From contig CALVIH010000002.1 in assembly GCA_944329445.1 (NCBI GenBank), positions 8,242 through 72,241 of the forward strand: 64,000 bases of DNA, in the 5' to 3' direction. Positions 13,348 to 37,475 of the stretch are shown here, one piece after another. Source of the stretch: an uncultured Bacilli bacterium. Its GTDB lineage: Bacteria > Bacillota_I > Bacilli_A > RF39 > UBA660. The notes beneath the pieces are model-generated. The model made no database searches. It had not been told where the DNA came from and worked only from the letters and a program-made list of their open reading frames with translations. The first letter of the stretch is position 1. Every line of letters starts with the position of its first letter. The translations under genes and the position numbers were made by a program.

Positions 13348-13354
13348 GTTCCTT

Positions 13355-13666: not shown

Positions 13667-13779
13667 TTAATACATCACCCATAAATATTATATTAATCAT
13701 TAAAATTTAGAGTTATAATAGATATCTTTTATTTTTACTTAAACAATATGTTATAATATTATTATATTGGAGGATAAAA

Positions 13780-14313
13780 ATGAAGTACCTAACAAAATTA
13801 AAAATGTATCTAATAAGTGATGCAAAGAAAAGAACTAACGTTTTAATTAAAAAAAACTTATTTAAAAGTGTCGGTAAAAATTTCTTTTTTCAACCAAGAG
13901 TTATTCCTGACGAACCAAAGCTAATTAGTTTTGGAGATAACGTATCGGTTGCATCAGGTGTTACTTTCGTTACCCATGATGTTATCGATAAGGTTTTAAA
14001 TAACATGAATTATAATTATACTTTTTATTATAATTGTGCCCCAATAAAAGTTGGAAATAACGTTTTTATAGGATGTAACGTAACCATCTTACCAGGAGTC
14101 GAAATAAAAGACAACGTAATTATCGCGGCAGGTTCCGTCGTAACTAAAGACGTTAAAGAAAACACTGTTGTAGGAGGTAATCCCGCTAAGGAGATAAGTA
14201 CTTTTGACGAATACGTAGAAAACAGGAAAAAAGATAACGTAGATGGTTTATACCCTAATTGTGATGCAGTAATAAATCAGGTATGGGATAAATTTTATAA
14301 TGAAAAAAAATAA
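13780..14313 (+). CDS. Hexapeptide-repeat (LbH) sugar O-acetyltransferase (maltose/galactoside acetyltransferase-like)
   Basis: IGNNVFIGCNVTILPGVEIKDNVIIAAGSVVTKDV...VVGGNPAK left-handed beta-helix repeats. Confidence 0.65.
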   Translation: MKYLTKLKMYLISDAKKRTNVLIKKNLFKSVGKNFFFQPRVIPDEPKLISFGDNVSVASGVTFVTHDVIDKVLNNMNYNYTFYYNCAPIKVGNNVFIGCNVTILPGVEIKDNVIIAAGSVVTKDVKENTVVGGNPAKEISTFDEYVENRKKDNVDGLYPNCDAVINQVWDKFYNEKK

Positions 14314-14318
14314 AAGAA

Positions 14319-22982: not shown

Positions 22983-23564
22983 TCAGTCCTTTACAATTAT
23001 TTTATCTTGATATTCTTTTTTACTTTCTAATGATTCTTCTACATTAATCCAATATCTGCCAAGCAAAACATCATTATCGTTTTCCTTTATCTTGTTTTCT
23101 AAAACACCATCAAAAGCCAATATAGTTTTAACGGATCCAATATTATCATCATACGCAGTAAGTAAAACTTTTTTAATGCCTAAGTTTTTACACTTTATTA
23201 AACCCAAATATAAATTTATTTTGTTATAACCCTTCATTCTTTCTTTTGGCCTTATTCCATACCCTATATGTCCTCCATGAATTAATAAAGCATCATTTAA
23301 CTTATGTCTAATATTAATCATACCTACTATCTTGTCATCATTTTCTCTAATAAGAAAATATGTGCTAGAGGGAACGAAATTATCGATTCCTTTTTTCATT
23401 TCTTCCAGGTATGATAACCATTTTTCATATGTTTTTTCTTTTATGTAAAAATCTAACTTTCCAGATCCATTAATGTTGGAACTACAATCCATATGTTCTT
23501 CAATATATTCTATTGCATCAGTTTTCCTTTTTATACTAGGTTTTTCTAAATAAAACTTTTCCAT
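22983..23564 (-). CDS. GNAT-like acetyltransferase (predicted)
   Basis: 193-aa ORF; IVGMINIRHKLNDALLIHGGHIGYGIRPKERMKGY resembles a GNAT motif A region. Confidence 0.4.
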   Translation of the reverse strand: MEKFYLEKPSIKRKTDAIEYIEEHMDCSSNINGSGKLDFYIKEKTYEKWLSYLEEMKKGIDNFVPSSTYFLIRENDDKIVGMINIRHKLNDALLIHGGHIGYGIRPKERMKGYNKINLYLGLIKCKNLGIKKVLLTAYDDNIGSVKTILAFDGVLENKIKENDNDVLLGRYWINVEESLESKKEYQDKIIVKD

Positions 23565-23599
23565 TTAAATCACCTTCTTTTAACAAATATATTTAATAA

Positions 23600-23643
23600 C
23601 ATAAAAACGGAGTCAAACTAGTAAATAATACTAGTGACTCCGT
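23600..23643 (-). terminator. Rho-independent terminator downstream of tyrS copy 1
   Basis: Inverted repeat ACGGAGTCAAACTAGTA/TACTAGTGACTCCGT followed by a U-run on the minus strand. Confidence 0.6.
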
Positions 23644-23791
23644 AATAATTACGTGTAGGCAATAACCCTTTGAGGCTAGATATAAATCATACTCAAACTC
23701 ACTTACTTGCTAATAAAATAACAAATATGATAATTCATGTCAAGTATTTCTACTAAATATTCTTTTTTTATAACTATAATGTCATATTTAA

Positions 23792-24988
23792 TTATTTTAT
23801 AACTATTTTTACAAATTTTTTCTTTCCTTTTTGAATTACAAGTTCGTTATTAACAAAATTTTTAAAAGTAATAATGGTATTAACATCATTTTCTTTTGTT
23901 CCATTTAAACTAATTCCATTTTGTCCAATCAATCTTCTTCCTTCTGACTTTGATGGAACAATTTTAGATAAGAGTAATAAATCCGGTAATGAAATACTAT
24001 TATCTATAATAGAACTTTCTACTTCTATTTCTTCAATATTATCAGGTATACCACCTTTAGCAACTGTTTTATATCTTTTTTCTGCTTGCTCTATAAGTTT
24101 TTCCTCATGATACATCTTAATTATTTCTCTGGCATACACTCTATGAGCTTCCACCACATCTTTTTCTATAATTTTTTTCGCTTTATCTAAATTTATATCT
24201 GTAGTAAGTTTAAAATAATCCATCAATACATTATCAGGAATTCTCATTGCTTTTTCATACATAATCTCAGGGCTTTCATCAACACCAATATAATTTCCTA
24301 ATGATTTACTCATCTTTTCTTTTCCGTCTAAACCCACTAATAATGGAAAACACATAACATCTTGAGGCTCTTGTCCATAATCCCTTTGCAATTCTCTTCC
24401 CACTAGCAAATTAAACGTTTGATCTGTTCCACCTATTTCTATATCCGCATGTAATGCGACAGAATCATATCCTTGCATTAATGGATATAAAAATTCATGA
24501 ATACCTATTGGAATGTTATTTTTGAATCTATTATTAAAATCGTCTCTTTCTAAGATTCTAGCAACTGTATATTTGCCAGTCAAATTAATTACATCTTTAA
24601 ATGACATTTTTGAAAGCCATTCAGAATTATAAACTATTTTAATTTTATTTGGATCTAGAATTTTAGCAACTTGCTTAAAATACGTTTCTCCATTTTTTCT
24701 GGTTTCTTCAAAACTTAGTGATGGTCTCGTTTTTGATTTGCCAGAGGGATCACCAATCATTGCAGTGAAATCTCCTATAACAAAAACAATTTCGTGACCT
24801 AATTCTTGCAATATTTTTAACGCTCTAAGTGGTACAGTATGACCTAAATGCAAATCTGGTCTAGATGGATCAGCACCAAACTTTACAACCAACTTTCTAC
24901 CACTATTTAATTTTTCAATCAAAGTATCTTTATTATGAACTTCTACTGTTCTTCTTAATATTAAATCTATTTGTTCTTTTTTATTCAT
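23792..24988 (-). CDS. tyrS: Tyrosyl-tRNA synthetase (type-2, TyrZ-like length), copy 1
   Basis: Class-I HIGH motif (PDLHLGH), KMSKS, GDPSGKSKTR tyrosine-specific block, C-terminal S4-like domain. T-box leader upstream. Confidence 0.85.
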   Translation of the reverse strand: MNKKEQIDLILRRTVEVHNKDTLIEKLNSGRKLVVKFGADPSRPDLHLGHTVPLRALKILQELGHEIVFVIGDFTAMIGDPSGKSKTRPSLSFEETRKNGETYFKQVAKILDPNKIKIVYNSEWLSKMSFKDVINLTGKYTVARILERDDFNNRFKNNIPIGIHEFLYPLMQGYDSVALHADIEIGGTDQTFNLLVGRELQRDYGQEPQDVMCFPLLVGLDGKEKMSKSLGNYIGVDESPEIMYEKAMRIPDNVLMDYFKLTTDINLDKAKKIIEKDVVEAHRVYAREIIKMYHEEKLIEQAEKRYKTVAKGGIPDNIEEIEVESSIIDNSISLPDLLLLSKIVPSKSEGRRLIGQNGISLNGTKENDVNTIITFKNFVNNELVIQKGKKKFVKIVIK

Positions 24989-24999
24989 AAATATTCCTC

Positions 25000-25235
25000 C
25001 TTCAAAAAAATACCGTGATAATTCTTATTCCATAAGGACGAATTATCGCGGTACCACCTTAATTTATGGTTAATAACCATACACTCAAAGTTATAAAGTA
25101 ACTAACTAATAAACTCATAATGTGTAATTCAAATGTATTATATGTTTAATTCCACCAAACTTAAACTCTCTAAAATATAACTAATACACTTTACTTTATC
25201 ATTAATCAGCATCTATTTAATATAAGACAATTATA
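25000..25235 (-). promoter_or_regulatory. T-box riboswitch leader (terminator/antiterminator) controlling tyrS copy 1
   Basis: Minus strand reads AAUUAAGGUGGUACCGCG at 25064..25047, against the T-box consensus AAUUAGGGUGGNACCGCG. This overlaps the 5' arm of a terminator helix (CGCGATAATTC...GAATTATCACGG) followed by UAUUUUUUU just before the RBS. An AGAGAG stem-I motif lies upstream. Confidence 0.75.
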
Positions 25236-25273
25236 TTATATCATATAATTACTCTTTTAACATTATTTTTAAA

Positions 25274-26524
25274 TTATTTTTTTATTAATTTTTTATTTAC
25301 TTCTTGGTTTTGAGCTAATCTAAACATATTTCCTTTACCAATTTGAATAATTGTTCCGTCAATTGGTTTAAATACCAAATTTTCAAACCTTTCCCCATTT
25401 AGCTTAACAGCACCTTGTTGAATTAATCTTCTAACTTCACTTTTTGATTTATACTTTCCTGTAGAAAAAATACAATCAATTAATGAATATAAATCATTTC
25501 CATCTGCTAAGTTACTATCATAATTAATAATTGGTAATTCAATATTATTCACATTCTTTTTTTGATATATTGCTTGAAAACTAGCCTCAGCTTCTTTCAA
25601 CTCTTCTTCTGAATGATATAAAGAAACTATACTTCTTGCTAAATGCATTTTAATATCTCTTGGATTTGTTTCTCCATTTTGTAATAGTTTTTGTATTGAC
25701 TTTATTTTATCAGGATGCAAATCAGTTGTTAAATTATAATAATTAATTATCAGTTCATCTGGAACTCGCATAACTTTTTCATACATAGTTTTTGCATCTT
25801 CATCAACGCCAATATAATTACCAAGTGATTTACTCATTTTTTCTTTTCCATCAAGTCCAACTAATAATGGAACAAACAAAGCGACTTGTTGTGGCTTATT
25901 AAAATATTTTTGAATATTTCTTCCTAACAAAATATTAAATGTTTGATCTGTTCCTCCCATTTCTATATCAGAATTGACAACGACAGAATCGTAAGCTTGC
26001 ATTAAAGGATAAATAAATTCATGTAACGAAATAGGTTTATGAGAATTAAATCTATTTTTGAAGTCATCTCTTTCAAGCATTCTTGCTACAGTAATATTAC
26101 TACATAAGTTTAAAACTTCCGAAAAAGATATTTTATTATACCATTCACTATTAAAATGAATTTCTGTTTTTGATTTATCTATAATTTTAAATATTTGTTC
26201 AAAATAAGTTCTGGCATTTGCTTCAACTTGTTCTTTAGTAAGTTGATTACGAGTTTTTGATTTGCCTGTTGGATCACCAATTGCACCTGTAAAATCACCA
26301 ATTATTATAACTGCTTTATGACCTAAATCTTGCAATTGTTTTATTTTTCTTAATGAAACTGCATGACCAAGATGAATATCTGGTGAAGATGGGTCCATTC
26401 CGAATTTAATTCTTAATGTTCTACCTTCATTATAGACTTCTTCAACCTTATCTCTAATAGCCTGTTCATCTACATCTGTAATTCCCTTTAATAAATATTT
26501 AATTGTTTCTTCTTTGTTAAACAC
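25274..26524 (-). CDS. Tyrosyl-tRNA synthetase paralog, copy 2 (GTG start, strong RBS AAGGGGG)
   Basis: PDIHLGH, KMSKS and GDPTGKSKTR motifs; collinear with copy 1 over the full length (about half identical by eye); no T-box upstream. Confidence 0.8.
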   Translation of the reverse strand: MFNKEETIKYLLKGITDVDEQAIRDKVEEVYNEGRTLRIKFGMDPSSPDIHLGHAVSLRKIKQLQDLGHKAVIIIGDFTGAIGDPTGKSKTRNQLTKEQVEANARTYFEQIFKIIDKSKTEIHFNSEWYNKISFSEVLNLCSNITVARMLERDDFKNRFNSHKPISLHEFIYPLMQAYDSVVVNSDIEMGGTDQTFNILLGRNIQKYFNKPQQVALFVPLLVGLDGKEKMSKSLGNYIGVDEDAKTMYEKVMRVPDELIINYYNLTTDLHPDKIKSIQKLLQNGETNPRDIKMHLARSIVSLYHSEEELKEAEASFQAIYQKKNVNNIELPIINYDSNLADGNDLYSLIDCIFSTGKYKSKSEVRRLIQQGAVKLNGERFENLVFKPIDGTIIQIGKGNMFRLAQNQEVNKKLIKK

Positions 26525-26553
26525 AAAATCCCCCCTTAATGAAAATTTGTGCT

Positions 26554-26582
26554 ATTGTAACACTTAATCTTATTTTTGTCAA
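26554..26582 (-). promoter_or_regulatory. Near-consensus sigma-A promoter for tyrS copy 2 (TTGACA-17-TACAAT)
   Basis: On the minus strand, TTGACAaaaataagattaagtgtTACAAT lies about 30 nt upstream of the GTG start. The leader is too short for a T-box. Confidence 0.55.
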
Positions 26583-26586
26583 ATTT

Positions 26587-28113
26587 AACATTTGATAGTT
26601 GTGTAAAATAGTTTGGGGAAAGAGTATGAAAAAAGGAAGACCTCTGTTAAAATGTAGTTGTACAAAACATTAGAAAGGAGTCTTCCATATGAGCATTGTA
26701 CCACAAAATTATAATAATTTGTTAAAAAATATCATTTTAAATACTTTTTCTTCTAATTTAGAAAGTATATTACATAACATCTTTGATTCTTCAAATAACG
26801 TCTTTAATTATGTTAACCTACTTTCCAATTTAGATAATTCTCTTTGTAATATTGCAAAGCAATCCCTTATCACTTGTTTTGAATCCATTGATAAATCTTT
26901 TAAATATTCTTTAGGAAGAAAACGTAAATATGAGATTAAATCTTATCATCCTAGAACTATTCTTACTGTTTTTGGTGAAATTACTTTTTATAGAACTTTC
27001 TATAAATCTAAACTAACTGGTAAAAACTTCTGTTATGTTGATAGATTATTAGGCCTTCATAAATATGACTATTTTGATCCTTATTTAAAATCTATTGTTA
27101 TTGAGTATTCTTCTTTTATTTCTTATCCTAAGGTGGCTAAATATCTTAATGATTTAATTGGTAATAGAGTATCCATTAATGATAAACAAAAATATTTTTC
27201 AAGACAAACCATCAGAAACATTATTTTAAATTCCAATCTTTCTATCGTTAATTATGATCCTAAGCCTGTTACACCAGAAACATTATACATCATCGCTGAT
27301 GAAAAATGGATTCCTACTCAAAATAATGACAATAATAAAATAATGGAAAAATCCGTTGTTATCTTTGAAGGTATTAAAAATCATAAACTTTTAAATAAAA
27401 GAATCTTCGCTTCTTATGATAATTCTTTTATAAATGATTCTTTAGATTATCTTTTTTATACTTATGACATTGATAAAATTAAAAACATTTTCGTTATGGG
27501 TGATGGTGCCAAATGGATCTATAAGTTAAAACATGAATATAAAATTGCATCTCATATAAATGTTACTTTTTGTTTAGATAAATTCCATTTTAAACAAGCC
27601 ATTCATCATATATGTTTAAACAAAGACTTAGAAGATATTCTTTCCTTTTATGTTTTAAATGATATGAAAAATGATTTCATAGATTGTTGTTCTTCTTTAA
27701 TTGATTCTTTCCCACACAGAACCGAAACTATTAACTTAAAAATGAATTACATTTTAAATAATTGGAAAAATATCAACAACTTATATTCTCATAATTTAAG
27801 TTGTCCTATGGAATCTCAAGTTTCTCATAACATCGCTGATTTATTTACCTCTAGACCTAAAGCTTATTCTGTTAATATGATTAATAAATTAATTGAAATC
27901 AGACTTCACTATAAAAATAATGATAATTTAAAAGAGTTATACTTAAATAACTTTAATTCAAGTACAACTCTTACTCTCGATAATCATTCTCTTAACTTCA
28001 ATATTTTTGATAATTTTCAATCGTATAACTTTTTAAATAACTTAATTTTTAATCCTACATTTTAACTTTTTCTATTATTTTCCCCAAAACTCTTTACATT
28101 AACATTTGATAAT
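26587..28113 (+). mobile_element. IS-like element (about 1.5 kb) bounded by imperfect terminal inverted repeats
   Basis: Left end AACATTTGATAGTTGTGTAAAATAGTTTGGGGAAAGAG (26587-26624) and right end TTTTCCCCAAAACTCTTTACATTAACATTTGATAATG (28077-28113) share an inverted TTTCCCCAAA.../...TTTGGGGAAA core and an ACATTTGATA block. A single transposase ORF lies inside. Confidence 0.4.
26689..28065 (+). CDS. Putative DDE transposase (ISLre2/UPF0236-like)
   Basis: 458 aa. YIIADEKWIPTQ and MGDGAKWIYK blocks resemble DDE-transposase catalytic motifs of the ISLre2/UPF0236 type. An 11-bp inverted repeat GGAAGACCTCT/AGGAGTCTTCC spans its RBS. Confidence 0.45.
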   Translation: MSIVPQNYNNLLKNIILNTFSSNLESILHNIFDSSNNVFNYVNLLSNLDNSLCNIAKQSLITCFESIDKSFKYSLGRKRKYEIKSYHPRTILTVFGEITFYRTFYKSKLTGKNFCYVDRLLGLHKYDYFDPYLKSIVIEYSSFISYPKVAKYLNDLIGNRVSINDKQKYFSRQTIRNIILNSNLSIVNYDPKPVTPETLYIIADEKWIPTQNNDNNKIMEKSVVIFEGIKNHKLLNKRIFASYDNSFINDSLDYLFYTYDIDKIKNIFVMGDGAKWIYKLKHEYKIASHINVTFCLDKFHFKQAIHHICLNKDLEDILSFYVLNDMKNDFIDCCSSLIDSFPHRTETINLKMNYILNNWKNINNLYSHNLSCPMESQVSHNIADLFTSRPKAYSVNMINKLIEIRLHYKNNDNLKELYLNNFNSSTTLTLDNHSLNFNIFDNFQSYNFLNNLIFNPTF

Positions 28114-29336
28114 GCATCAAATACATATCCAGAATTACCAATATTTATTAAATATTTACTAATTTTTTCAATATTTAACTTTGTTTCTTTAAAATCTGGA
28201 TAAACAATTTTAAAGATAACTTCTAGTTTGCTTTTTAATTTTTCATAAAAACATTCTTCATCATTATTAAAACAATAATAATTTAATTCATCATTAAAAC
28301 TACTATTTAAATTTACAGAATCAATTGAATAAAGCAATACTGGTAATAAAGCAGAAACTAATTTTAAGTTTTCTCTATATGCATGAATAATAGTATTATT
28401 AAATAATATTAAAATTTTTTTGTATAATTCTTTATTTGTTTTTCTAATTGCATAAAATGTCATATCCATTATTGCATCCATATTATAACCAAATAAATCA
28501 GAAATAATCGATGCCATATCAATAGGTAATAAGCAATAATCATCATATGTAATAATTTCCTTTTTCTCTGCAAACAAAACTATTTCCATAATTTTTTTTC
28601 GTAATTCCAAATCACTTTCTGAATAGCCTAATATTTCTTTAAAGTTGGATTCATAAGTATTTAATTGTGGTTCCATTCCATTATGTGTTTGCAAATCAAT
28701 TACTATATCTCTTATTAATTTCAAGTCATATAAATAACTCCAATTAATAAACAAATTTGTTCTATAAAGTAAATTAAAATATTGTATTCTTTCAAAAAAA
28801 CTAGCATTTTCAAAATCAAATAAGTAAATTTTTTGTTTTTCTTTAGAAACAACCATATTTCTAGGACAAAATCCTGGGTATTCAATTCCTAATTCACACA
28901 ATAATTTCAACATTTTTTCAAAATCATTTATTGTAAAACATAATTCATCCTGTGAGTATAAATGCTCTTGTAAAGTATTTCCCATATAATTAGTTGCAAT
29001 ATAATTTTTACCATCAACATTATATAATTTAGGTTCTATAACTTCAAGTTGAAAATTATTAATTTTTTTTCCTGTTATTAATGTAGAAGCCAACAAAGTA
29101 TTTGACATTTCTATTTTTGATTTTTTAGGATTCATATACTTTATAAGATATTCAACATTTCTATATCTAAAGATCCTAAACCTGTTATTTACATCTAATA
29201 ATTCAGAATTGTGAAAAAAATTATATATTGGATCTTTGTATGCAATTCTTATTGCATCTTCAAAATTATCAGTTTCAACAATATTGATATCATTGCTTTT
29301 ATGTAACGCACTATATAACTTACCCATTTTCACCAT
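28062..29336 (-). CDS. Kinase-fold (choline/Kdo-kinase-like) protein with a C-terminal helical extension; last gene of the 7-gene operon
   Basis: GFCPRNMVV ... KIYLFDFENASF resembles the catalytic loop and the DFE (Brenner) motif of choline/APH-type kinases, but the catalytic Asp is not evident. The 3' end overlaps the IS right inverted repeat. Confidence 0.4.
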   Translation of the reverse strand: MVKMGKLYSALHKSNDINIVETDNFEDAIRIAYKDPIYNFFHNSELLDVNNRFRIFRYRNVEYLIKYMNPKKSKIEMSNTLLASTLITGKKINNFQLEVIEPKLYNVDGKNYIATNYMGNTLQEHLYSQDELCFTINDFEKMLKLLCELGIEYPGFCPRNMVVSKEKQKIYLFDFENASFFERIQYFNLLYRTNLFINWSYLYDLKLIRDIVIDLQTHNGMEPQLNTYESNFKEILGYSESDLELRKKIMEIVLFAEKKEIITYDDYCLLPIDMASIISDLFGYNMDAIMDMTFYAIRKTNKELYKKILILFNNTIIHAYRENLKLVSALLPVLLYSIDSVNLNSSFNDELNYYCFNNDEECFYEKLKSKLEVIFKIVYPDFKETKLNIEKISKYLINIGNSGYVFDALSNVNVKSFGENNRKS

Positions 29337-30297
29337 CTTCTAAAAATTCATTCATAAATGCCGCGCCTATCATTCCTGCACTATTACCAAGTTTTGCTTG
29401 AATAACATTAACCTTCGGAGTACATTTATAACCATAATCTCTCTTAGCAATATATTCATTGATTTTTTTAAACAAAAAATCTCCTGTTTCTGAAATTCCA
29501 CCGCCAATTATTATTGCTTCTGGTCTAAAGCAATTACATATGTTTAATATACCTTCACTTAAATATTTTACATATTTATTGATTACCTTATTAGCCGATT
29601 TATCATTTAATTTAGCACAAGTGAAAGCTAAAGTCCCATCAACATTTTCGATATTGCCATAAACATGACTCCACATCAAAGAATTTTTGTTATATAACAT
29701 TTCTTCTTTTGTATACCTAATTAATGCTTTTGCAGATGCATATGCTTCAAAACATCCATGCCTACCACAAGTACATAATTCGCCATTCATCATTAATAGA
29801 GTGTGTCCAACTTCTCCGCCTTTATCTCCATTTCCTTCAAATAATTTCCCGTTTATAACAATTCCAGCACCTATTCCAGTTCCTATTGTCATAACAATCG
29901 CACTTTTATATTGCATACCAGCCCCAAACATCATTTCACCTATACAAGCTGATCTTGAATCATTACAGATTTTCATAGGAATAGTTATTCCTTTATCTTT
30001 TAATAATCCAATTATAGGAACATTATTCCACGATAAATTCCCAGAAAATTCAGCTAACCCTTTTTTTCTATTAACAATTCCTGGTATGCCTAATCCAATA
30101 AAAGATAGAAATGTATCACTTATACTCTTATTTTTTTTTATTAAATAATTTATTAAATTATATAAATTATCAACAACACTTATTTTTTCATCATCATTGA
30201 AAGTTTGGACTTTGGTAGAAAATAAAACATTTCCTTTATCATCTATAATTCCACCTTTTATAAAAGTCCCGCCAACATCTATACCTATTCTATTCAT
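29320..30297 (-). CDS. ROK-family sugar kinase (glucokinase/N-acetylhexosamine kinase-like)
   Basis: RIGIDVGGTFIKGG N-terminus and the zinc motif CTCGRHGCFEAYAS. Confidence 0.75.
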   Translation of the reverse strand: MNRIGIDVGGTFIKGGIIDDKGNVLFSTKVQTFNDDEKISVVDNLYNLINYLIKKNKSISDTFLSFIGLGIPGIVNRKKGLAEFSGNLSWNNVPIIGLLKDKGITIPMKICNDSRSACIGEMMFGAGMQYKSAIVMTIGTGIGAGIVINGKLFEGNGDKGGEVGHTLLMMNGELCTCGRHGCFEAYASAKALIRYTKEEMLYNKNSLMWSHVYGNIENVDGTLAFTCAKLNDKSANKVINKYVKYLSEGILNICNCFRPEAIIIGGGISETGDFLFKKINEYIAKRDYGYKCTPKVNVIQAKLGNSAGMIGAAFMNEFLEDGENG

Positions 30298-31321
30298 ATC
30301 TTAACACCTTATCCTTCACATTTAGATCGATAGCAAAATCCAATGAACGTATTGGAATTTTCTTCATTGTTTCTTCTCTTTTTAGCCATATATTTTCAAA
30401 ATATTCCTCAAATGTTTCAAACTCGTAGTATTCCTTTCCAATAGTCGGTAATACACCTAAATCAATTATAATCCATTGCTGTTTTTCTTCGCACCAAATA
30501 AAATTACCAGGATGAATATCTAGAATAATTTTATTAAATAATAATGAATACGTAGAGTAAAATAATCTTAAAGATTTTATTTGTTTTTCCGTAAAAGGAA
30601 TATGATTAAAAAGATAATACTCTCCATTCTCTCCGCTTACAAAATTGTGCATCAAAAATTTATTCACAGCATCAAAAGTATAATTTTCGGGTAAAAATTT
30701 ATTTAAATCTGTTTTTGATAAATAGTTATACGAATCCATTTCCTGTTGCATCAGAAATAATTTAGATGCAACAGTTTTTGGATATTTTATAATTACATTT
30801 TTTTCTAAATAAATATTTGATATAGCACCAGTATCATTGAGCAGAAACAAATTTTCTAATTTGTTTTTTTTTAATGTTACTACCCTATATAAATACATAA
30901 GTGAAAACTCAATTATGTTTTTTATATCTTTTTCAGTTATAGGCATTGTATAAATAATATTATTGAATGCATATAAAACAAGAGGACACAAACCATTGTC
31001 TGCCAAAATATTATTCAGTAATAAACTGTTTTCAAAAAGGTTATCTTCTGGTTTCATAACATTATTAAACAAAACTACTATATCATTTACATTATTAATC
31101 TTAATGTTTCTTTTACTTTTTAAAAAAGTCCTGTTATCGTATAATAATTTTTCTAAAAAAGCATAATAATAATCGTATTTTTTAGAATCGTTCTCTTTTA
31201 AATACATTAAATGATTTTTATAAACCACAAAATTAATTTTATTTTTTTCTTCATAAGTCATTTTAGAATAAAACAACATATAATTAAATAAATCTTGATT
31301 ATTTAATTCACTAAGTTTCAT
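30290..31321 (-). CDS. APH/choline-kinase-family phosphotransferase
   Basis: ILDIHPGNFIW (D-x-H-P-G-N catalytic loop) and IIIDLGV (metal-binding Asp) in the C-terminal lobe. Confidence 0.5.
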   Translation of the reverse strand: MKLSELNNQDLFNYMLFYSKMTYEEKNKINFVVYKNHLMYLKENDSKKYDYYYAFLEKLLYDNRTFLKSKRNIKINNVNDIVVLFNNVMKPEDNLFENSLLLNNILADNGLCPLVLYAFNNIIYTMPITEKDIKNIIEFSLMYLYRVVTLKKNKLENLFLLNDTGAISNIYLEKNVIIKYPKTVASKLFLMQQEMDSYNYLSKTDLNKFLPENYTFDAVNKFLMHNFVSGENGEYYLFNHIPFTEKQIKSLRLFYSTYSLLFNKIILDIHPGNFIWCEEKQQWIIIDLGVLPTIGKEYYEFETFEEYFENIWLKREETMKKIPIRSLDFAIDLNVKDKVLRYE

Positions 31322-31322
31322 A

Positions 31323-33251
31323 TTACCTTTTTAGACCATTTGGATATTTATCTAAATATTCTTTAGTTTTTTTCTTTATATATTTTACATCTGTTTCATT
31401 TTTTAAAGACTTATCAAAGAAATAATTAGAATTATCAAAATAATATGTTACTTCTTCCAACGAAAGTCCAAAAGGATTTTCATTATTTATAAATTGTTCA
31501 ACGTCTAAATCCTTTGGAGGCTTATGATACTTTAATTCTCTCATTTTGAATCCAGAATTTATTAATTTTTCATCATGATATAATTCTATTTTATACTTAG
31601 CATCTACATAAATCGCATCTATGCCTTTTTGTAGTGCGAATTGAATAGCTTCATTAATATTATTAATAATTGGTTCTCCAGCATCGTTCAAAGAAGTATT
31701 ACATAAAACAGGAATTTTTGTCCTAGCATAGAATGATTTCAATAACTCATATAAATTTTTATTACTTTCTGAACTAACACTTTGAATTCTCGCAGTTCCG
31801 TCATAATGAGTTACAGCAATTAAGTCATCTCTGTATTTTTGTTTAATACTCAAGTTCAATAACATATATGGTGAAAATCTATAATCTTCAAATATTTCTG
31901 AACCATGTTCATCCATTATTAATGGCGCTACTGGTCTCCACCACTGTCTTTTTTTAATAACATTAAGTTTATCTTTTATTGCTTGATATCTTGGATCGCC
32001 TAAAATTGATCTATCTCCCAAAGCACGAGGACCTATTTCTGCTCTTCCATCAATCCATATCATAATGTTATTTTCTAATTCAGCAGCAATTTTATCAATT
32101 GTAATCTCTTTAATTTCTTTTATATATTTTTTGTTTTCTGCGTTTATGGAATTAATACCACCATGATATTGTCCATAATATACTGTATTCAAGTTAACTT
32201 TTGCTTTTCCAGTAGAAAGTAATGGATAAAATGCCGCTAGGCCTACTCCTAAAGCAATACCTGTATCACTTGCACATGGAGGAATTTGATAGTTCTTAAA
32301 TTTGTATTTTTTTAATATTGAACTGTTAGTTGGACAATTTAAAGCAAAACCTCCTGCTAAAGCAATTGTTGTTTCCTTAGGATCCAATTTAAATGTTGAC
32401 AATATTTTATCAATATGTTTAAATACCATTTTTTCAGAAAGAACAGAAATTATTTTCATAACCATACTAATATAATTTTCTTGTTCTGTAAAATTCTCAT
32501 TAAATTTTGAACATTTTATACCTATATCCTCTTTTTTTATAGATAAAACTTGATTGCATATATCTTCAACAATAAATTGTGCATTTCCTCTAGCTTCTTC
32601 ATTATAGAAAGTTATACCATCATATTTTGAATAATCAAAATTATAAAATTCTGTGTCCATAGCTGTAGCCAATGCCATTAATGACCCTTCTCTTAAGCCA
32701 AATTTTTTATATGAATAACTCCAAAATCTTGCAGGTGATTCAACTTCAAAAAATTCAATTTTACCATTATTTATAACAGCACCTGAATAATATTGCAAAT
32801 CATATGCATTATTTTCAAAGCAACTATCTGGTCCTGCATCCAGAGCCAAAGCAATAATTTTATCAGAAAAAGGGGTACTATTTGAATAAAGTATACTTGT
32901 TAATAAATGTGCAATATTATGAAAGCATACTCTTGAGTCAATATAATTCATATAATTATTATCTATTTCTATACCTTTAGTACCCCAGATCCCTTTAATA
33001 TCATTTAGCGTTAACTGCTCTTCTTCTAATAATTTATTTATTAATTCTAATAAATAATCTTTGCTATACGCCGCAATTTGATGTTGCTTTATACCAGTAA
33101 TTCTTTCTAACTCCCAATATTTTACTAATTTAATTTCATCGTCAAAATAACTCCATAATGCGATAGTATGATCATGCCTAACTTTTACCTTTAAAATATT
33201 TTGCAATTCTCCAAAAGATAAAAATGTTGATATATAATAACCTTCTTCCAT
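31323..33251 (-). CDS. NodU/CmcH/TobZ-family O-carbamoyltransferase
   Basis: ERITGIKQH, ALAGGFALNCPTNS, and C-terminal GPRALGDRSILGDPR...KRQWWRPVAPL (Carbam_trans_C-type block). Confidence 0.7.
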   Translation of the reverse strand: MEEGYYISTFLSFGELQNILKVKVRHDHTIALWSYFDDEIKLVKYWELERITGIKQHQIAAYSKDYLLELINKLLEEEQLTLNDIKGIWGTKGIEIDNNYMNYIDSRVCFHNIAHLLTSILYSNSTPFSDKIIALALDAGPDSCFENNAYDLQYYSGAVINNGKIEFFEVESPARFWSYSYKKFGLREGSLMALATAMDTEFYNFDYSKYDGITFYNEEARGNAQFIVEDICNQVLSIKKEDIGIKCSKFNENFTEQENYISMVMKIISVLSEKMVFKHIDKILSTFKLDPKETTIALAGGFALNCPTNSSILKKYKFKNYQIPPCASDTGIALGVGLAAFYPLLSTGKAKVNLNTVYYGQYHGGINSINAENKKYIKEIKEITIDKIAAELENNIMIWIDGRAEIGPRALGDRSILGDPRYQAIKDKLNVIKKRQWWRPVAPLIMDEHGSEIFEDYRFSPYMLLNLSIKQKYRDDLIAVTHYDGTARIQSVSSESNKNLYELLKSFYARTKIPVLCNTSLNDAGEPIINNINEAIQFALQKGIDAIYVDAKYKIELYHDEKLINSGFKMRELKYHKPPKDLDVEQFINNENPFGLSLEEVTYYFDNSNYFFDKSLKNETDVKYIKKKTKEYLDKYPNGLKR

Positions 33252-33262
33252 ATTTTCCTCCT

Positions 33263-35524
33263 TTATCTAAATACAAATGGTCTTGGTTTATGCGGAACTT
33301 CTTTTGCTTCAAAAGTATCTTTTATTTTATCAAAATCCTTAATGTGTTTCATTAATTCATCAACAAATTTATCAACATATTGTCTATTAAAATGTGCAGA
33401 CATTGGATAAGCTTTTAAAACACCTATCTTTTTTCCATTGGATAAAACGTGATATCCTGATGAATAATCAATAGTGAACGAACACTTACCTTGTTTTTCC
33501 TTTTCAAGTAAATATGTATAAAATTTGTAATTATACTCGCCAAATTTTTTGGCATATTCCAAATCTCCATTACCTAAATCAAAGAAAGATGGAACATTGT
33601 TTTTTTCTTTTGCAACAAATAATGTTACAAATCCATTACTATCTAAGTCATTTATTACTTCAAATTTTCCAGTTTGTTCAAGTTTTTCTTTCAAATATTG
33701 TGAAGAATCCAAGAGATTTGCCATTATTTTTTGATATCCTTGAATACCTAACATTTTCAAATTAACATAAGCCGAAATAGGTCCACTTAATGGTCTCGAC
33801 AATTCAAGAGTATATTGGAATGGTGAATAATTGCCAAATTCTAATTCATCATATGGAATATTAGGAGCATCACCTTGTTCATATAATTCAGTTTTATCTT
33901 TAGTAATATATAGACTTGCTAGATAAGAACAAAAACCAGTTTTATGGAAGTCTACTCCAAATGAATCAGCGTATTTTATATCTTTAATTTGCTCTGTTAA
34001 AAACTTAATCTTATTTAAAGCTTTTGTATGAATATTTAATGGATTTTCATTAAAATCATAATCTTTAAAGAATAACCATACCCAACCAATTACTGAATCA
34101 ACATGAACTCTTGGAATATAATCAAGGTTATATTTTTTTACCATTTTATTTCTTAATTCAACAATTTTTTTTATAGGATCAATAGTCATTTGAATAGTAG
34201 TACATCCATTTACAATGATTGTAGCCACCTTTTTTCCTAAAGATAGAGCTTCATCAAATTCCTTCTCCAATTCATTTAAATCCACAACACCCATAGAATC
34301 TATTTTTATTCTTTTACAATTATTTTCACCTATACCTAACCATCCACAAACTTCAACATGGCAGATATGACCTTGAGTATTTGAAAAAACAATTATTTCA
34401 TCTTTTATTCCTGTTTTTCTAAAATCCTTATTTACTCTTTGGATACCATGTTTAACTGCATGCATATTTGTTGATTTGCCTCCAAATGTAAATATACCGC
34501 CGGATTTTTTATAGTCAATATCAGCTAATTCACTTATCATTTTTATAGTTGCAAGTTCAGTAGTCATCAATAATCCGCACGATAAATCTTGTGCTGCATT
34601 TGGATTATATAATGAGAAATAACTACTTGCTGCTAAAGATTCAATTGTAGGAACAGGATTAACGTTTGTTAAAGTACCTGGATTATTCCATAAAACCATA
34701 CCTTCTGTATATTTAGTTAATTGTTCATATACTTCATCAACACTTTGTGATTCAAATTTTAAATTTTCGTATTCCAAAAATTCTGCATATTTTTTATTTG
34801 TATTTTTAGGAATTCTTGAATAAGAATGGATTATGTTTTTGTCAACTTTCTTATGTAATAACTCAATATCATTCAAAAATTCAGCTATATCCATTGTTTC
34901 TGGATTTAAAAAATGTTTATTCATATTTAATTTTTCCTTTTCATAATTAATTTTTTCTAATGCATCTTCAATATTGCTTATTTCTCTTTTGTTTTTTATA
35001 TACATTGTTTTAAAGCCTAAAAAACTTGCCGGCTTTATATCAACCATATAATTATCACCTATTACATAAATTTGTCGTGGTGACAATTTATATTTTTTTA
35101 CGATTTTTTTGTATATTTCAAATTTATTTTTATGTTTATCAGTACAATAAATTTCGTCAAATAATTTTTCAACACCTAAATTTTTAAGTATTTCTTTAAC
35201 ATGATACTCACATGAATTAGAGCAAACGATCTTTTTACCATCTAACTTACACAATTCTTTTTTTAAATTATCATTTTTATCAAAATATTCATTGTAATTT
35301 ATATCTTTATATACTTCTTTATAAAAATCCTTTTTATCAATCTTTAACTTTTCTAAAGCAATTAATAAATCAGGAATTTCTTTTTCTAAATTTTTATATT
35401 CGTTTTCTGTTAAATGTCCTTTTTGCTTTATATAGTTTTTAATTCTTTTGTCAATTATTTTCGAAATGCGATTACTTTCATCATATAATGTTCCATCTAA
35501 ATCAAAGATAAATAATTGTTTCAT
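33263..35524 (-). CDS. Fusion protein: N-terminal HAD-superfamily phosphatase plus PLP-dependent group-II decarboxylase
   Basis: HAD motifs FIFDLDGTLYDE, CSNS, YVIGDNYMVD (residues 1-200); decarboxylase motifs SGGIFTFGGKSTNMHAV, HVDSVIGW and the PLP-lysine block SFGVDFHKTGF. Confidence 0.65.
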   Translation of the reverse strand: MKQLFIFDLDGTLYDESNRISKIIDKRIKNYIKQKGHLTENEYKNLEKEIPDLLIALEKLKIDKKDFYKEVYKDINYNEYFDKNDNLKKELCKLDGKKIVCSNSCEYHVKEILKNLGVEKLFDEIYCTDKHKNKFEIYKKIVKKYKLSPRQIYVIGDNYMVDIKPASFLGFKTMYIKNKREISNIEDALEKINYEKEKLNMNKHFLNPETMDIAEFLNDIELLHKKVDKNIIHSYSRIPKNTNKKYAEFLEYENLKFESQSVDEVYEQLTKYTEGMVLWNNPGTLTNVNPVPTIESLAASSYFSLYNPNAAQDLSCGLLMTTELATIKMISELADIDYKKSGGIFTFGGKSTNMHAVKHGIQRVNKDFRKTGIKDEIIVFSNTQGHICHVEVCGWLGIGENNCKRIKIDSMGVVDLNELEKEFDEALSLGKKVATIIVNGCTTIQMTIDPIKKIVELRNKMVKKYNLDYIPRVHVDSVIGWVWLFFKDYDFNENPLNIHTKALNKIKFLTEQIKDIKYADSFGVDFHKTGFCSYLASLYITKDKTELYEQGDAPNIPYDELEFGNYSPFQYTLELSRPLSGPISAYVNLKMLGIQGYQKIMANLLDSSQYLKEKLEQTGKFEVINDLDSNGFVTLFVAKEKNNVPSFFDLGNGDLEYAKKFGEYNYKFYTYLLEKEKQGKCSFTIDYSSGYHVLSNGKKIGVLKAYPMSAHFNRQYVDKFVDELMKHIKDFDKIKDTFEAKEVPHKPRPFVFR

Positions 35525-37458
35525 CTATTTTTATTCAACCTCTTTAAAACCATTTTTTTTATCCCTTCATCATCAAATTGATAATGTTTAATCAAATCAT
35601 CAACTTTACCAGACGTACCTTCATAATACCCATGTCCATATATAAATTTAGGTCTTGGTAATGTTTCACTACTCAATATTGTGCTTGATACATGTTGTGG
35701 AAGTATTTCTGGACTACCATTATATAATGTAATAATAGGAGCATCATTAACTAATAATTCATTTGCTTTTTGTTCAAACTTATTTGGGCATACCATGTTT
35801 ATTACATTTGTTGGAATTCCATAATTTATTTCCAAATCTTTTGCAACTTTTACAGCATTTTCTCCCATAAAACCAGTAGAAATTAGCACAAGCCTAGGTT
35901 CTTTATCAGTTTGATGAATATAATAGGCAATAATATTATCTTTATCACTATCGTTTCGTTCAATATTTAAAGTCCCATGATGTATTCTAACATAATTCAA
36001 ACCAGTATTTTTCTTTAAGATTGATGAATATATATTGTATAAATCCACATTATCAGCCGGTTCATAAAAATTCACATCTGGTATGGTCATTAAAGCACCT
36101 GGCTGTGATACAGTTTGATGTGTTTTTCCGTTATGTCCTTGAAATATTCCTGAATTTTCTCCAATAACTAATATATTACTTTCGCCCGTTGCTGCTGCAT
36201 TAAGTTGATCCATAAACCTGTACGAAAAAGCATCTCCACTACATAATATAATTCTTGCATCACGATTTTCCACTGAAATGCCATGAGCCATTGCTATAGC
36301 ATGTTGTTCTCTAATTCCTGTATTAATAAAATGCGTAAAATTTTTAAAGTCTGCTAAAGTCTCTGTATCCTTTCTTATCAAATCAGGTGTAATAAAATAT
36401 ATATTTGACTTATCATGACTTTGTATTACATTTTTTCTTAATTCTTCAAAAAACTGATCTTGTGCATCTTCAACATTTATACCAGTATGATCCGTATGTA
36501 TGTCAAATACATCAGAATCAATATAGTTATTCTTAATAATTACATTAGACGGAGTAGAAATAAGTTTCTTTGCAAGTGAAGAAATGTTTTCACAACTTAA
36601 TCCTTGCTGTTCTAACGCTGTTTTCATTTCTTTATAAGTCTCTATTATAAGTTCTTTTTCTTTTTTACTAGCACCTGATAATGTATGATATCCATTAAAA
36701 TGTTCAATGGCATTTTTAATTCCATAAGCTTTTGTTGTATTTGCAATAATCATAATTGGTTTATTTTGTTTTTGTGTCTTACTATATGCATCTAAAACTT
36801 CTTGTATATTATTACCATCTTCTATAGATATAACATCCCAGCCATATCCTCTCCATATTTCTTCAATATTTGCTCCAGAATCATGATAACTTGTTGCTCC
36901 TGATAATTGTTTACCATTTTTATCCAATATACATATTAGATTATTTAAATTTAAATTAGCTGCATGACGAGCTGCTTCAGAAATATTTCCTTCTTGTTCT
37001 TCACCATCCCCTAGGAAAACAACTATTTTTGAATCAATACTTTTATCCTTATTTGCTATTGCAGAACCTACTCCATAAGAAAGAATCATTCCTAATGAAC
37101 CACTTGGTGTAATATCTACTCCAGGAACAAAAAACATATCCTCGTGTCCTTGCAATCTAGACCCTAATTGTCTGTACCCTTTTAATTCATCTGGTTTAAT
37201 GTATCCTAATAGTGAAAATATTGTATATCTCAAAGGGCCTTCATGACCTCTTATCAAAACTCTATCTCTATTTGGATTTTTCGAGTCTTCTGGATCAAAA
37301 TTAAAAACTCCTCCAAAATACAAAGCTGTTAACAACTCTACTGAAGACATATTTCCTCCAAGATGCCCATTATTTGCATTTAGAATTGTTCCTAATGCTG
37401 TTGTTCTAACATAATTAGCGATCTTCTTTAATTCATCTAATCTTTCTTTTTCCGTCAT
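35521..37458 (-). CDS. Transketolase-family thiamine-diphosphate enzyme
   Basis: GHLGGNMSSVELLTALYF, NPNRDRVLIRGHEGP, GYRQLGSRLQGHED, and the TPP motif GDGEEQEGNISEAARHAANLNLNNLICILDKN. Confidence 0.7.
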   Translation of the reverse strand: MTEKERLDELKKIANYVRTTALGTILNANNGHLGGNMSSVELLTALYFGGVFNFDPEDSKNPNRDRVLIRGHEGPLRYTIFSLLGYIKPDELKGYRQLGSRLQGHEDMFFVPGVDITPSGSLGMILSYGVGSAIANKDKSIDSKIVVFLGDGEEQEGNISEAARHAANLNLNNLICILDKNGKQLSGATSYHDSGANIEEIWRGYGWDVISIEDGNNIQEVLDAYSKTQKQNKPIMIIANTTKAYGIKNAIEHFNGYHTLSGASKKEKELIIETYKEMKTALEQQGLSCENISSLAKKLISTPSNVIIKNNYIDSDVFDIHTDHTGINVEDAQDQFFEELRKNVIQSHDKSNIYFITPDLIRKDTETLADFKNFTHFINTGIREQHAIAMAHGISVENRDARIILCSGDAFSYRFMDQLNAAATGESNILVIGENSGIFQGHNGKTHQTVSQPGALMTIPDVNFYEPADNVDLYNIYSSILKKNTGLNYVRIHHGTLNIERNDSDKDNIIAYYIHQTDKEPRLVLISTGFMGENAVKVAKDLEINYGIPTNVINMVCPNKFEQKANELLVNDAPIITLYNGSPEILPQHVSSTILSSETLPRPKFIYGHGYYEGTSGKVDDLIKHYQFDDEGIKKMVLKRLNKNR

Positions 37459-37475
37459 GTATTTTTCTCTCCAAT

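Follow-up and report, generated by a model that had tools for sequence, protein, structure and literature searches.

Why does a Bacilli genome keep two full-length tyrosyl-tRNA synthetase (TyrRS) genes in tandem, the second of them next to an operon that looks biosynthetic? The pair lies on the minus strand of the window, the whole stretch of 64,000 nucleotides that was analysed, and a first-pass annotation had given coordinates that the open reading frames match exactly:

23792-24988, minus strand: type-2 TyrRS copy 1, 398 aa, ATG start (Pfam and NCBIfam tyrS)
25274-26524, minus strand: type-2 TyrRS copy 2, of the cluster-linked clade, 416 aa, GTG start (Pfam and NCBIfam tyrS)

Pfam tRNA-synt_1b matches copy 1 with 261 bits and copy 2 with 274, and the C-terminal S4/SYY domain is matched by Pfam in both. 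Against the NCBIfam tyrS equivalog TIGR00234, with its cut-off of 113.8, they score 378.5 and 363.7 bits respectively. The HIGH (as HLGH), KMSKS and GDP[ST]GKSKTR motifs previously read in both proteins are there. The two are 50% identical. The structures in the PDB closest to copy 2 are 6bqy, 1h3e and 6byq, with the type-1 structures far behind; its nearest solved structures are thus of the T. thermophilus type, which places it in type 2. Copy 2 has the appearance of a complete, canonical tRNA-charging enzyme.

The opposite control of the two genes that the first-pass annotation had described is real and is kept in orthologues. Copy 1 had been placed under T-box control, and the Rfam match passes the gathering score:

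25031-25218, minus strand: T-box leader of copy 1 (Rfam RF00230; 94.4 bits, gathering score 93)

The model was matched at full length, with UAC within the specifier region, and a T-box also precedes the copy-1 orthologues of L004 (94.2 bits) and L006 (74.5 bits). Copy 1 is present in all related loci examined apart from L024/L025, even where copy 2 is missing, and forms its own clade in a neighbour-joining tree (100% bootstrap). Judged by these sequence comparisons, copy 1 is the ancestral, starvation-responsive housekeeping TyrRS of the lineage.

For copy 2, the Rfam model found no T-box in 24900-26800 even at E<=1, and in relatives free of the insertion sequence (IS) described below none is possible, because the intergenic space is only 1-130 nt. 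The TTGACA-17-TACAAT promoter, short leader, GTG start and strong Shine-Dalgarno sequence that had been attributed to copy 2 were all found:

26554-26582, minus strand: copy-2 promoter, extended -10 (TTGACA, 17-nt spacer, TG-n-TACAAT)
26530-26537, minus strand: Shine-Dalgarno AAGGGGGG of copy 2, read from the sequence and kept in orthologues

The -35 TTGACA is at 26582-26577 and the -10 TACAAT, with TG before it, at 26559-26554. The leader is about 23-30 nt long, and the GTG at 26524 is an ATG at the same position in orthologues. With a score of 11/12 this is the top site within 23500-29500. Since shuffled sequence yields promoter-like sites at least as often as this AT-rich region does, the support for the promoter is its conservation in orthologous loci: the same architecture stands 55-65 nt 5' of the start in L004/5/28/29/30/37, L066, L067 and L006/34/38/40. 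It is native DNA, not brought by the IS, and in relatives without the IS it lies inside the ORF upstream, at its 3' end; the distance from the last cassette gene to the start of copy 2 is 1-60 nt there. With this conserved sigma-A promoter of the extended -10 type and its short leader, copy 2 would be made regardless of tRNA-Tyr charging or the state of the operon.

Between copy 2 and the operon lies the IS:

26585-28111, plus strand: ISLre2-like insertion sequence including its target duplication (element about 26598-28098)
26602-26621 and 28079-28098: inverted repeats of the IS, 20 nt, 80% complementary
26585-26597 and 28099-28111: 13-bp perfect target duplication TTAACATTTGATA, flanking about 1.5 kb
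26689-28065, plus strand: IS transposase ORF (Pfam UPF0236 / ISLre2-like)

The transposase scores 142 bits against NF033529, under the cut-off of 200. Copy 2 does adjoin the IS, as had been pointed out, but relatives without the IS deprive this of relevance: the site is empty in L004, L005, L028, L029, L037, L066 and L067, and the IS is also found in the same-species contigs L001-L003. Insertion replaced the last ~13 codons of h424, the upstream ORF. In IS-free L004 this ORF crosses the copy-2 promoter, and its end is 12 nt short of the ATG. The IS inserted recently and is unrelated to the TyrRS and its cluster. It would have separated copy 2 from read-through of the operon while leaving the promoter intact.

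Beyond the IS, the neighbouring genes are:

28062-29336, minus strand: h424, protein-kinase-like, no Pfam match (family profile)
29320-30297, minus strand: ROK-family sugar kinase (Pfam ROK, 227 bits)
30290-31321, minus strand: h343, conserved core protein with kinase-like motif LDIHPGNF...IDLG (family alignment)
31323-33251, minus strand: TobZ/NodU-type carbamoyltransferase, core (Pfam Carbam_trans_C, 189 bits)
33263-35524, minus strand: fusion of HAD phosphatase and group-II PLP decarboxylase, core (Pfam, NCBIfam)
35521-37458, minus strand: transketolase-like ThDP enzyme, accessory in the Bacilli version (Pfam Transketolase_N and Transket_pyr)
37476-38921, minus strand: short Rel/SpoT homologue with HD, synthetase and TGS domains (Pfam, NCBIfam), 17 nt from the next gene

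Pfam bears out the Rel, transketolase-like and carbamoyltransferase genes named in the annotation. In most relatives the variable interval has Rel on its upstream side, whether copy 2 is present or not, and Rel is a conserved flank outside the cluster proper. The core is formed by the HAD phosphatase, the group-II PLP decarboxylase, the TobZ-like carbamoyltransferase and the kinase-like 343-aa protein; the version in this lineage has the transketolase-like enzyme, the ROK kinase and the second kinase-like protein as additions. The HAD part of the fusion is pyrimidine-5'-nucleotidase-like, and the HAD and decarboxylase parts are separate genes in relatives. PDB matches of the carbamoyltransferase include TobZ, GdmN and the novobiocin carbamoyltransferase. 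In L067, L068, L070, L071 and L073 it is directly followed by a homologue of h343, a family with invariant D268, H270, N273 and D287 for which a PDB profile search gave no significant match. The profile of the h424 family has a weak match to protein kinases (E about 6e-5), the ROK kinase scores under the glucokinase subfamily cut-off and the transketolase-like enzyme under all NCBIfam transketolase cut-offs. No transporter was seen among the Pfam-annotated ORFs within 28062-38921.

Does copy 2 belong to this core? The core has an adjacent TyrRS in four of the five lineages sampled: the gut Bacilli metagenome-assembled genomes (MAGs), the Clostridia MAG L068, the L073/L074 lineage and Nocardia fluminea (L070). 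The TyrRS of L068 has a PheRS-type B3_4 domain as fusion partner, while L073/L074 has a tight TyrRS-NDK-HAD-PLPdc-CarbT-352 operon in two differing flanking contexts. The TyrRS of the Nocardia cluster is a type-1 enzyme only 26% identical to copy 2 and was thus recruited independently. The core-bearing locus L071, whose upstream side is disrupted by an IS, has no TyrRS in view. Such recurrent linkage of TyrRS and core is what a comparison across taxa should show for an aminoacyl-tRNA synthetase (aaRS) dedicated to a cluster.

In the tree, which is bootstrapped neighbour-joining only and weak at its deep nodes, the cluster-linked type-2 TyrRSs fall into one clade (100% bootstrap), apart from copy 1 and sister to clostridial enzymes rather than to copy 1. 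The clostridial sister group includes an Oceanirhabdus TyrRS (L007) that has a T-box. Copy 2 is thus no recent duplicate, and its separate clade indicates that copy 1 was the ancestral housekeeping gene and that copy 2 arrived with the cluster. The cassette and copy 2 of the window share 91-95% identity with those of L004, while the genes at the native locus of the same MAG (L011) reach only 70-80%. The cluster, with copy 2, has probably been horizontally transferred.

An extra copy, linkage conserved across taxa and a separate origin, three marks of a target-duplicate aaRS of the self-resistance type, are all found here. A change in the pocket is not. We compared copy 2 and copy 1 with a type-2 pocket consensus from 124 representatives, at the equivalents of D78, Y169, Q173, D176, D194, Q195, K82 and R86 in what we take to be the B. 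stearothermophilus TyrRS sequence. At these canonical tyrosine- and ATP-contact residues copy 2, copy 1 and the consensus are identical without exception, which counts against self-protection. The substitutions specific to the copy-2 clade are few and conservative, and comparing the two pockets gave no diagnostic resistance-type change.

A canonical pocket also fits an accessory or stress isozyme, unlinked to the cluster, that has settled in a Rel-TyrRS recombination hot spot and acts, for example, against D-Tyr or the analogues of neighbours. Between Rel and copy 1, relatives carry at least ten gene sets, many without copy 2, and one cassette type is found both with and without it. Copy-2 orthologues (69-80% identity) also adjoin cassettes of a quite different make-up that lack the carbamoyltransferase operon and hold radical-SAM genes, a GNAT, or a truncated class-I aaRS paralogue together with a CAT-like protein and a nucleotidase. 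What the first-pass annotation had named as refuting its proposal, relatives with the gene but not the operon and a pocket like that of copy 1, is thus in part observed. Copy 2 has been lost repeatedly among relatives, with a frameshift in L054, a fragment in L016 and only a 3' remnant in L041, L043, L051 and L015. We nevertheless consider the isozyme quite improbable. It fails to explain two TyrRS subtypes beside the same core in Clostridia, L073/L074 and Nocardia, where core and TyrRS are far from any Rel gene, and it leaves the single clade of cluster-linked enzymes unexplained. In its tyrZ-like form, the main alternative of the first-pass annotation, it fits poorly, as both copies are type 2 and the T-box and MarR control of TyrZ is missing; the Pfam-annotated ORFs on either side of copy 2 include no member of the MarR family.

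The reading that we prefer, and to which we give about an even chance, sees in copy 2 a TyrRS dedicated to a horizontally mobile small-molecule cluster, most likely keeping tyrosine charging going in the producer. The gene content, regulatory elements, synteny and phylogeny of the locus are established. Self-protection seems to us the best reading of copy 2, while a protective role and a tie between product and tyrosine are inferred. Against it speak the unchanged pocket, the other cassettes, the repeated losses and the absence of a transporter from this version of the cluster. Copy 2 would maintain tyrosine charging in a cell making a tyrosine-related product, either a TyrRS inhibitor or a tyrosine analogue mishandled by the ordinary TyrRS. 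It may also feed Tyr-AMP or Tyr-tRNA to the pathway, much as the albomycin SerRS AbmK feeds in serine.

The nearest relatives of copy 2 (L068, P0241 and P0243) have an N-terminal B3_4 domain, with scores of 60-65 bits for L068 and P0241; copy 2 of the window has none. In PheRS this domain hydrolyses Tyr-tRNA-Phe, so its fusion to TyrRS in the sister group points to a problem of amino-acid fidelity. Such quality control fits less well with a purely biosynthetic copy 2 that provides Tyr-AMP or Tyr-tRNA-Tyr as a building block and protects nothing. In favour of supply, copy 2 retains all catalytic residues and the tRNA-binding C-terminal domain, and a TobZ-type enzyme is made up of Kae1- and YrdC-like domains, which have relatives that work on tRNA and on aminoacyl-carbamoyl-adenylates. 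The full-length cluster enzymes AbmK and VlmL, the latter the supplier aaRS for valanimycin, can feed biosynthesis (PMC9032320). Housekeeping copy 1, however, could make the same substrate available, the core is without a known aminoacyl-tRNA-dependent transferase (CDPS, Fem-type, LanB-type or PEARL), and copy 2 persists next to unrelated cassettes. We give pure supply a slender chance.

A safeguard or sensor against tyrosine drain, in which the PLP decarboxylase uses up tyrosine, the linked TyrRS maintains the supply for protein synthesis or senses how much tyrosine there is, and no antibiotic is made, is in our view rather unlikely. Of the partners of the TyrRS the decarboxylase is the best conserved (48-58% identical across lineages, to the counterparts in L068, L070, L071 and L073), and cassette B, also found with copy 2, has one at 39% identity. 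For tyramine and histamine decarboxylase clusters, a linked aaRS gene has been called 'a general feature', and the TyrS linked to tyrosine decarboxylase (tdc) is a clade of its own (PMC3315439), in parallel with the cluster-linked clade here. But the decarboxylase of the window scores 30 bits against the enterococcal tyrosine decarboxylase model TIGR03811, with a cut-off of 905, and the tyrosine/tyramine antiporter is missing from the cluster. The tdc-linked tyrS has a T-box and copy 2 does not, and the carbamoyltransferase, kinases and nucleotide-type enzymes are not explained by plain decarboxylation.

Going further than a dedicated TyrRS, we tentatively suggest that the core marks a widespread, hitherto undescribed cluster family making an inhibitor of TyrRS that mimics tyrosine or Tyr-AMP, each cluster with its own immune TyrRS, though we doubt this more than we believe it. 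The inhibitor would possibly be a carbamoylated amino-acid-nucleoside conjugate, the hosts may be gut Bacillota and Nocardia, and some of the immune TyrRSs may have a fused B3_4 proofreading domain. If so, this would be the first natural pathway to a TyrRS inhibitor in which the cluster itself encodes a resistant TyrRS, and one at work in the human and animal gut. A product targeting TyrRS would be a new antibiotic scaffold from gut commensals, and the B3_4-TyrRS fusions would proofread tRNA-Tyr in a new way. For target-directed genome mining, few guides are as reliable as duplicate aaRS genes encoded in clusters, and a two-gene curiosity becomes a testable cluster family with a defined core, a candidate immunity gene, compact six-gene versions that suit heterologous expression and at least one named host, Nocardia fluminea. 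Even if its role is metabolic, the repeated pairing of TyrRS and decarboxylase gives an uncharacterised pathway a likely substrate class.

The literature searched describes no cluster-encoded TyrRS with these partner genes. The closest parallel is AbmK, the SerRS of the albomycin cluster, which both withstands albomycin and provides seryl-adenylate; the same cluster encodes a carbamoyltransferase and PLP enzymes too (PMC9032320). Like AbmK and the resistant copies cited for mupirocin (IleRS), borrelidin (ThrRS) and agrocin 84 (LeuRS) (PMC9032320) and for indolmycin (TrpRS) (PMC9437257), copy 2 is a divergent second aaRS by biosynthetic genes. It differs from AbmK in that its amino acid is tyrosine, its cluster enzymes are unrelated to the abm genes, and its hosts are gut Bacillota MAGs and Nocardia.

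The tyrS of enterococcal and lactobacillal tdc clusters shares with copy 2 the link to a group-II PLP decarboxylase and a clade of its own (PMC3315439). It differs in being a type-1 enzyme (KFGKT motif) with a T-box leader and pH control, whereas copy 2 is type 2 without a T-box. The tdc cluster includes an antiporter but neither a carbamoyltransferase nor kinases, and the two decarboxylases are only remotely similar. The B3_4 editing domain of the PheRS beta subunit recurs in the relatives of copy 2, but fused to TyrRS instead of PheRS.

In B. subtilis, TyrS and TyrZ are likewise two differently regulated TyrRS genes in one Bacillota genome, one of them thought to guard against non-cognate forms of tyrosine, with tyrZ controlled by a T-box and a MarR regulator (PMC9437257). 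TyrS and TyrZ are of different subtypes, whereas both copies in the window are type 2, and tyrZ is not cluster-linked, whereas copy 2 is, and has a promoter without a T-box leader.

The two tyrosyl-tRNA synthetase (TyrRS) genes of the first-pass annotation are indeed a full-length tandem pair on the minus strand, with boundaries exactly as first annotated. Copies 1 and 2 both have a Pfam tRNA-synt_1b domain and a C-terminal S4/SYY domain, both exceed the NCBIfam tyrS cut-off threefold and both carry the HLGH, KMSKS and GDP[ST]GKSKTR motifs. They are T. thermophilus-like type 2 enzymes with 50% identity to each other. The features around them are:

23792-24988, minus strand: TyrRS copy 1, complete ORF (Pfam and NCBIfam tyrS)
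25031-25218, minus strand: T-box leader of copy 1, full-length Rfam match, 94.4 bits against a gathering score of 93
25274-26524, minus strand: TyrRS copy 2, complete ORF with GTG start (Pfam and NCBIfam tyrS)
26537-26530, minus strand: Shine-Dalgarno sequence of copy 2, AAGGGGGG, with the GTG at 26524 (from sequence)
26582-26577, minus strand: putative copy-2 promoter, -35 box TTGACA, then a 17-nt spacer and TG-n-TACAAT ending at 26554 (from sequence)
~26598-28098: ISLre2/UPF0236-like insertion sequence (IS), inverted repeats 26602-26621 and 28079-28098

The proposal that the two genes follow opposite regulatory logic, a T-box for copy 1 against a promoter for copy 2, was borne out, with both layouts kept in orthologues. 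The copy-1 T-box has UAC in its specifier region, and T-boxes also precede copy-1 orthologues on related contigs (94.2 bits in L004, 74.5 bits in L006). Upstream of copy 2 no T-box, even a degenerate one, was matched at E<=1. The copy-2 promoter is the top-scoring promoter-like site within 23500-29500. Such matches are about as frequent as expected for DNA of 26% GC (50 found, 49 expected), so the call rests on conservation: most copy-2 orthologues have TTGACA, a 17/18-nt spacer and (TG)TAnAAT 55-65 nt before the start codon, including those at loci whose upstream genes differ widely. The retention of T-box and promoter across orthologues suggests that the regulatory contrast is an evolved, stable property. 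Copy 1 is predicted to answer to uncharged tRNA-Tyr, and copy 2 to have a promoter without a tRNA-sensing leader.

The IS, initially drawn into the story of copy 2, lies outside the system. It is flanked on each side by a perfect 13-bp direct repeat, TTAACATTTGATA, and its site is empty in five contigs with copy 2 at 95% identity (L004, L005, L028, L029 and L037), which indicates a recent, species-level insertion. It inserted 3 bp upstream of the -35 box but was not the source of the promoter, which is native and kept in IS-free relatives. In L004-type contigs, which lack the IS, the last operon gene, encoding the 424-aa kinase-like protein h424, spans the copy-2 promoter and ends 12 nt before the ATG; in the related locus L067 the gap between the last upstream gene and copy 2 is 1 nt. 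The insertion cost h424 its final ~13 codons and is predicted to have severed copy 2 from operon read-through.

Exact or near-exact copies of the locus were confined to metagenomic contigs and MAGs from human and animal guts, the MAGs being labelled uncultured Bacilli or 'Tenericutes'. A class B bacterial RNase P RNA at 50815-51165 (minus strand, Rfam 298.7 bits) fits a Bacillota host. A scan of the whole 64-kb window yielded no tRNA genes.

Copy 1 and its T-box were found in every related locus examined except L024 and L025, where copy 2 is alone. Copy 2 is carried by only some loci, and in others it is decaying: it has a frameshift in L054, is a fragment in L016 and, in L035 and L036, where a serine recombinase lies next to it, is truncated N-terminally. 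L041, L043, L051 and L015 have only 3' remnants (residues ~360-415, 48-82% identity to copy 2) ~270-400 bp upstream of the copy-1 orthologue, showing that the tandem was formerly present there and that copy 2 has since been deleted. In a bootstrapped neighbour-joining (NJ) tree the copy-1 clade was separate at 100%. Copy 2 grouped with Clostridia TyrRSs (Lachnospiraceae and Ruminiclostridium by the names of cluster members), which answers the earlier question of vertical or foreign descent and excludes a recent duplication of copy 1. A T-box is present on a related Oceanirhabdus enzyme. The patchy distribution of copy 2, its decay and its separate clade together point to an acquired accessory gene. 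There is no local GC anomaly near copy 2 or the upstream genes (21-30% over 25-37 kb, 21-38% window-wide). Between the window and L004, these upstream genes and copy 2 are 91-95% identical, against 70-80% for the genes at the native locus of that MAG (L011), which suggests that the transfer was recent, unless the MAG bin is chimeric. Pairs of contigs from one MAG (L004 and L011, HGM10825) or one sample (L028 and L044) point to a relative apparently with three TyrRS genes, a native copy-1 type in a GGDEF-BrkB-LtaS context and a Rel-cassette-copy 2-copy 1' block elsewhere; this set of three may be genuine or the result of a binning error.

Rel had been counted as an operon member but is a conserved flank. 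After it, on the minus strand, come a transketolase-like ThDP enzyme, a fusion of a HAD phosphatase with a group-II PLP decarboxylase (PLPdc), a TobZ/NodU-type carbamoyltransferase (CarbT), the 343-aa protein h343, a ROK sugar kinase and h424, which has weak protein-kinase similarity. None of these proteins reached a curated equivalog cut-off. On its HPGN...DLG motif h343 may be a kinase; a profile search of its fold against the PDB gave no significant match. The fusion is a single 753-aa ORF here (33263-35524) and two genes in L004, L066, L067, L070, L071 and L073; in L067 PLPdc is split into ORFs of 292 and 163 aa.

In relatives the stretch between Rel and copy 1 is occupied by ten or more different gene sets, or cassettes, whose contents include radical-SAM enzymes, YcaO, truncated class-I and class-II aaRS paralogues, S66 peptidases and nucleotidases. 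The truncated paralogues (around L051:5669-6670 and L049:5170-6195) are a 333-aa tRNA-synt_1b and a 341-aa catalytic-core-only tRNA-synt_2 protein; cassettes with them also encode a CAT-like protein, NT5C nucleotidases, a methyltransferase and a kinase. In several genomes the gene immediately 5' of the copy-1 orthologue encodes an S66 (LD-carboxypeptidase/MccF-family) peptidase. A 193-aa ORF (22983-23564) that follows copy 1 directly in the window is absent from the near-identical L001 and L003, a strain-level indel.

Copy 2 does not always travel with the operon, as the first-pass annotation had wondered: four or five cassette types end, on the 3' side, with a copy-2 orthologue of 69-80% identity. 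Taken alone, this variety would favour a variable hot spot, in which copy 2 is an unlinked accessory or stress isozyme. That separability is part of what the first-pass annotation had said would refute its reading; on the other side, the same core (HAD, PLPdc, CarbT and h343) recurs with a TyrRS in distant lineages, and we consider the unlinked isozyme quite improbable. The recurrence emerged from a search with the carbamoyltransferase, not TyrRS, as query, after which the contexts of its homologues were inspected:

L066 and L067, same Bacilli lineage (CarbT 83% and 77%): cassette, copy 2, then copy 1
L068, Clostridia MAG (CarbT 52%): B3_4-TyrRS fusion, 281-aa protein, NDK-like, PLPdc, CarbT, h343-like
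L071, related to L068 (CarbT 50%): core, no TyrRS in view, transposases on the upstream side
L073 and L074 (CarbT 47%): tight operon of TyrRS, NDK-like, HAD, PLPdc, CarbT, h343-like
L070, Nocardia fluminea (CarbT 42%): TyrRS, HAD, PLPdc, CarbT, h343-like
L072, Amycolatopsis (CarbT 42%): different cluster, without PLPdc and TyrRS

Across lineages identities are 48-58% for PLPdc, 41-53% for CarbT and 24-45% for h343. CarbT alone was rejected as a marker because of the Amycolatopsis homologue. The L073/L074 operon has two different flanking contexts, one with recombinases, and the Nocardia core shares its island with a group II intron and a type I restriction system. Beyond the h343-like gene of L068 are a nucleotidyltransferase, carrier proteins, an adenylating enzyme and ABC exporters. 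Just 3' of the L073 operon (12988-15129) are four small ORFs (53-89 aa), a PqqD-like protein, an Rce1/CPBP-like protease and ABC transporters; these resemble a module for peptide natural products, a possible hint that the product has a peptide carrier.

Bootstrap support of 100% (NJ) unites the type-2 cluster-linked TyrRSs in a single clade: copy 2, L066, L068, L073 and the fusions P0241 and P0243. The Nocardia enzyme is type 1, 26% identical to copy 2 and closest in the PDB to M. tuberculosis TyrRS, indicating that TyrRS was recruited to the core at least twice. In this enzyme (L070:6113-7387) HMGN replaces HIGH, where M. tuberculosis has HAGH. The closest relatives of copy 2 are the B3_4-TyrRS fusions. 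These Clostridia/Lachnospiraceae proteins (L068:4129-6063, P0241 and P0243) are 625-644 aa long with an N-terminal PheRS-type B3_4 domain, which scores 60-65 bits in L068 and P0241 and is inferred in P0243 from length and 66% identity to L068. To our knowledge no TyrRS fused in this way has been described.

Active sites were compared across 118 copy-2-clade, 41 copy-1-clade and 124 other type-2 TyrRS representatives. Copy 2 matches the consensus at all catalytic-core columns conserved at >=80%. The equivalents of B. stearothermophilus D78, Y169, Q173, D176, D194, Q195, K82, R86, HIGH and KFGKT, in what we take to be the numbering of that enzyme, are the same in both copies. Contact residues are thus identical, the outcome that the first-pass annotation had named as speaking against self-resistance, and an altered active site is ruled out at conserved contact positions. 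The copies differ only at second-shell positions, such as G80/A177 in copy 2 and A76/G173 in copy 1. The changes peculiar to the cluster-linked enzymes, namely L to I, F to I, Y358 and an HP pair at 270-271, are conservative. Copy 2 looks like a working synthetase, a picture compatible both with insensitivity and with its absence.

Copy 2 is very probably tied functionally to the cluster. With about even confidence we favour self-protection, in which copy 2 would keep tRNA-Tyr charged while a tyrosine-related product is present. This reading draws on its own promoter, inside an upstream ORF and without a tRNA-sensing leader, on its full length and separate clade, and on a sister group that fuses TyrRS to a PheRS-type B3_4 editing domain. 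A safeguard against tyrosine drain, as proposed for the tyrS linked to the enterococcal and lactobacillal tyramine cluster (PMC3315439), is a more doubtful possibility, and a purely biosynthetic supply role seems improbable.

Literature searches for a TyrRS-carbamoyltransferase cluster or self-resistance returned nothing relevant, and no description was found of a TyrRS linked to the HAD/PLPdc/CarbT/h343 core. Copy 2 belongs to an uncharacterised, taxonomically wide cluster family. Cluster-encoded duplicate aaRSs are already known, and we count copy 2 as a new example of that type. The albomycin-cluster SerRS AbmK and other cluster aaRSs (PMC9032320, PMC9437257) are precedents that also argue for self-protection. 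The tyrZ-type alternative offered at first fits poorly: B. subtilis tyrZ has T-box and MarR control and a different subtype pairing, and copy 2 differs in both.
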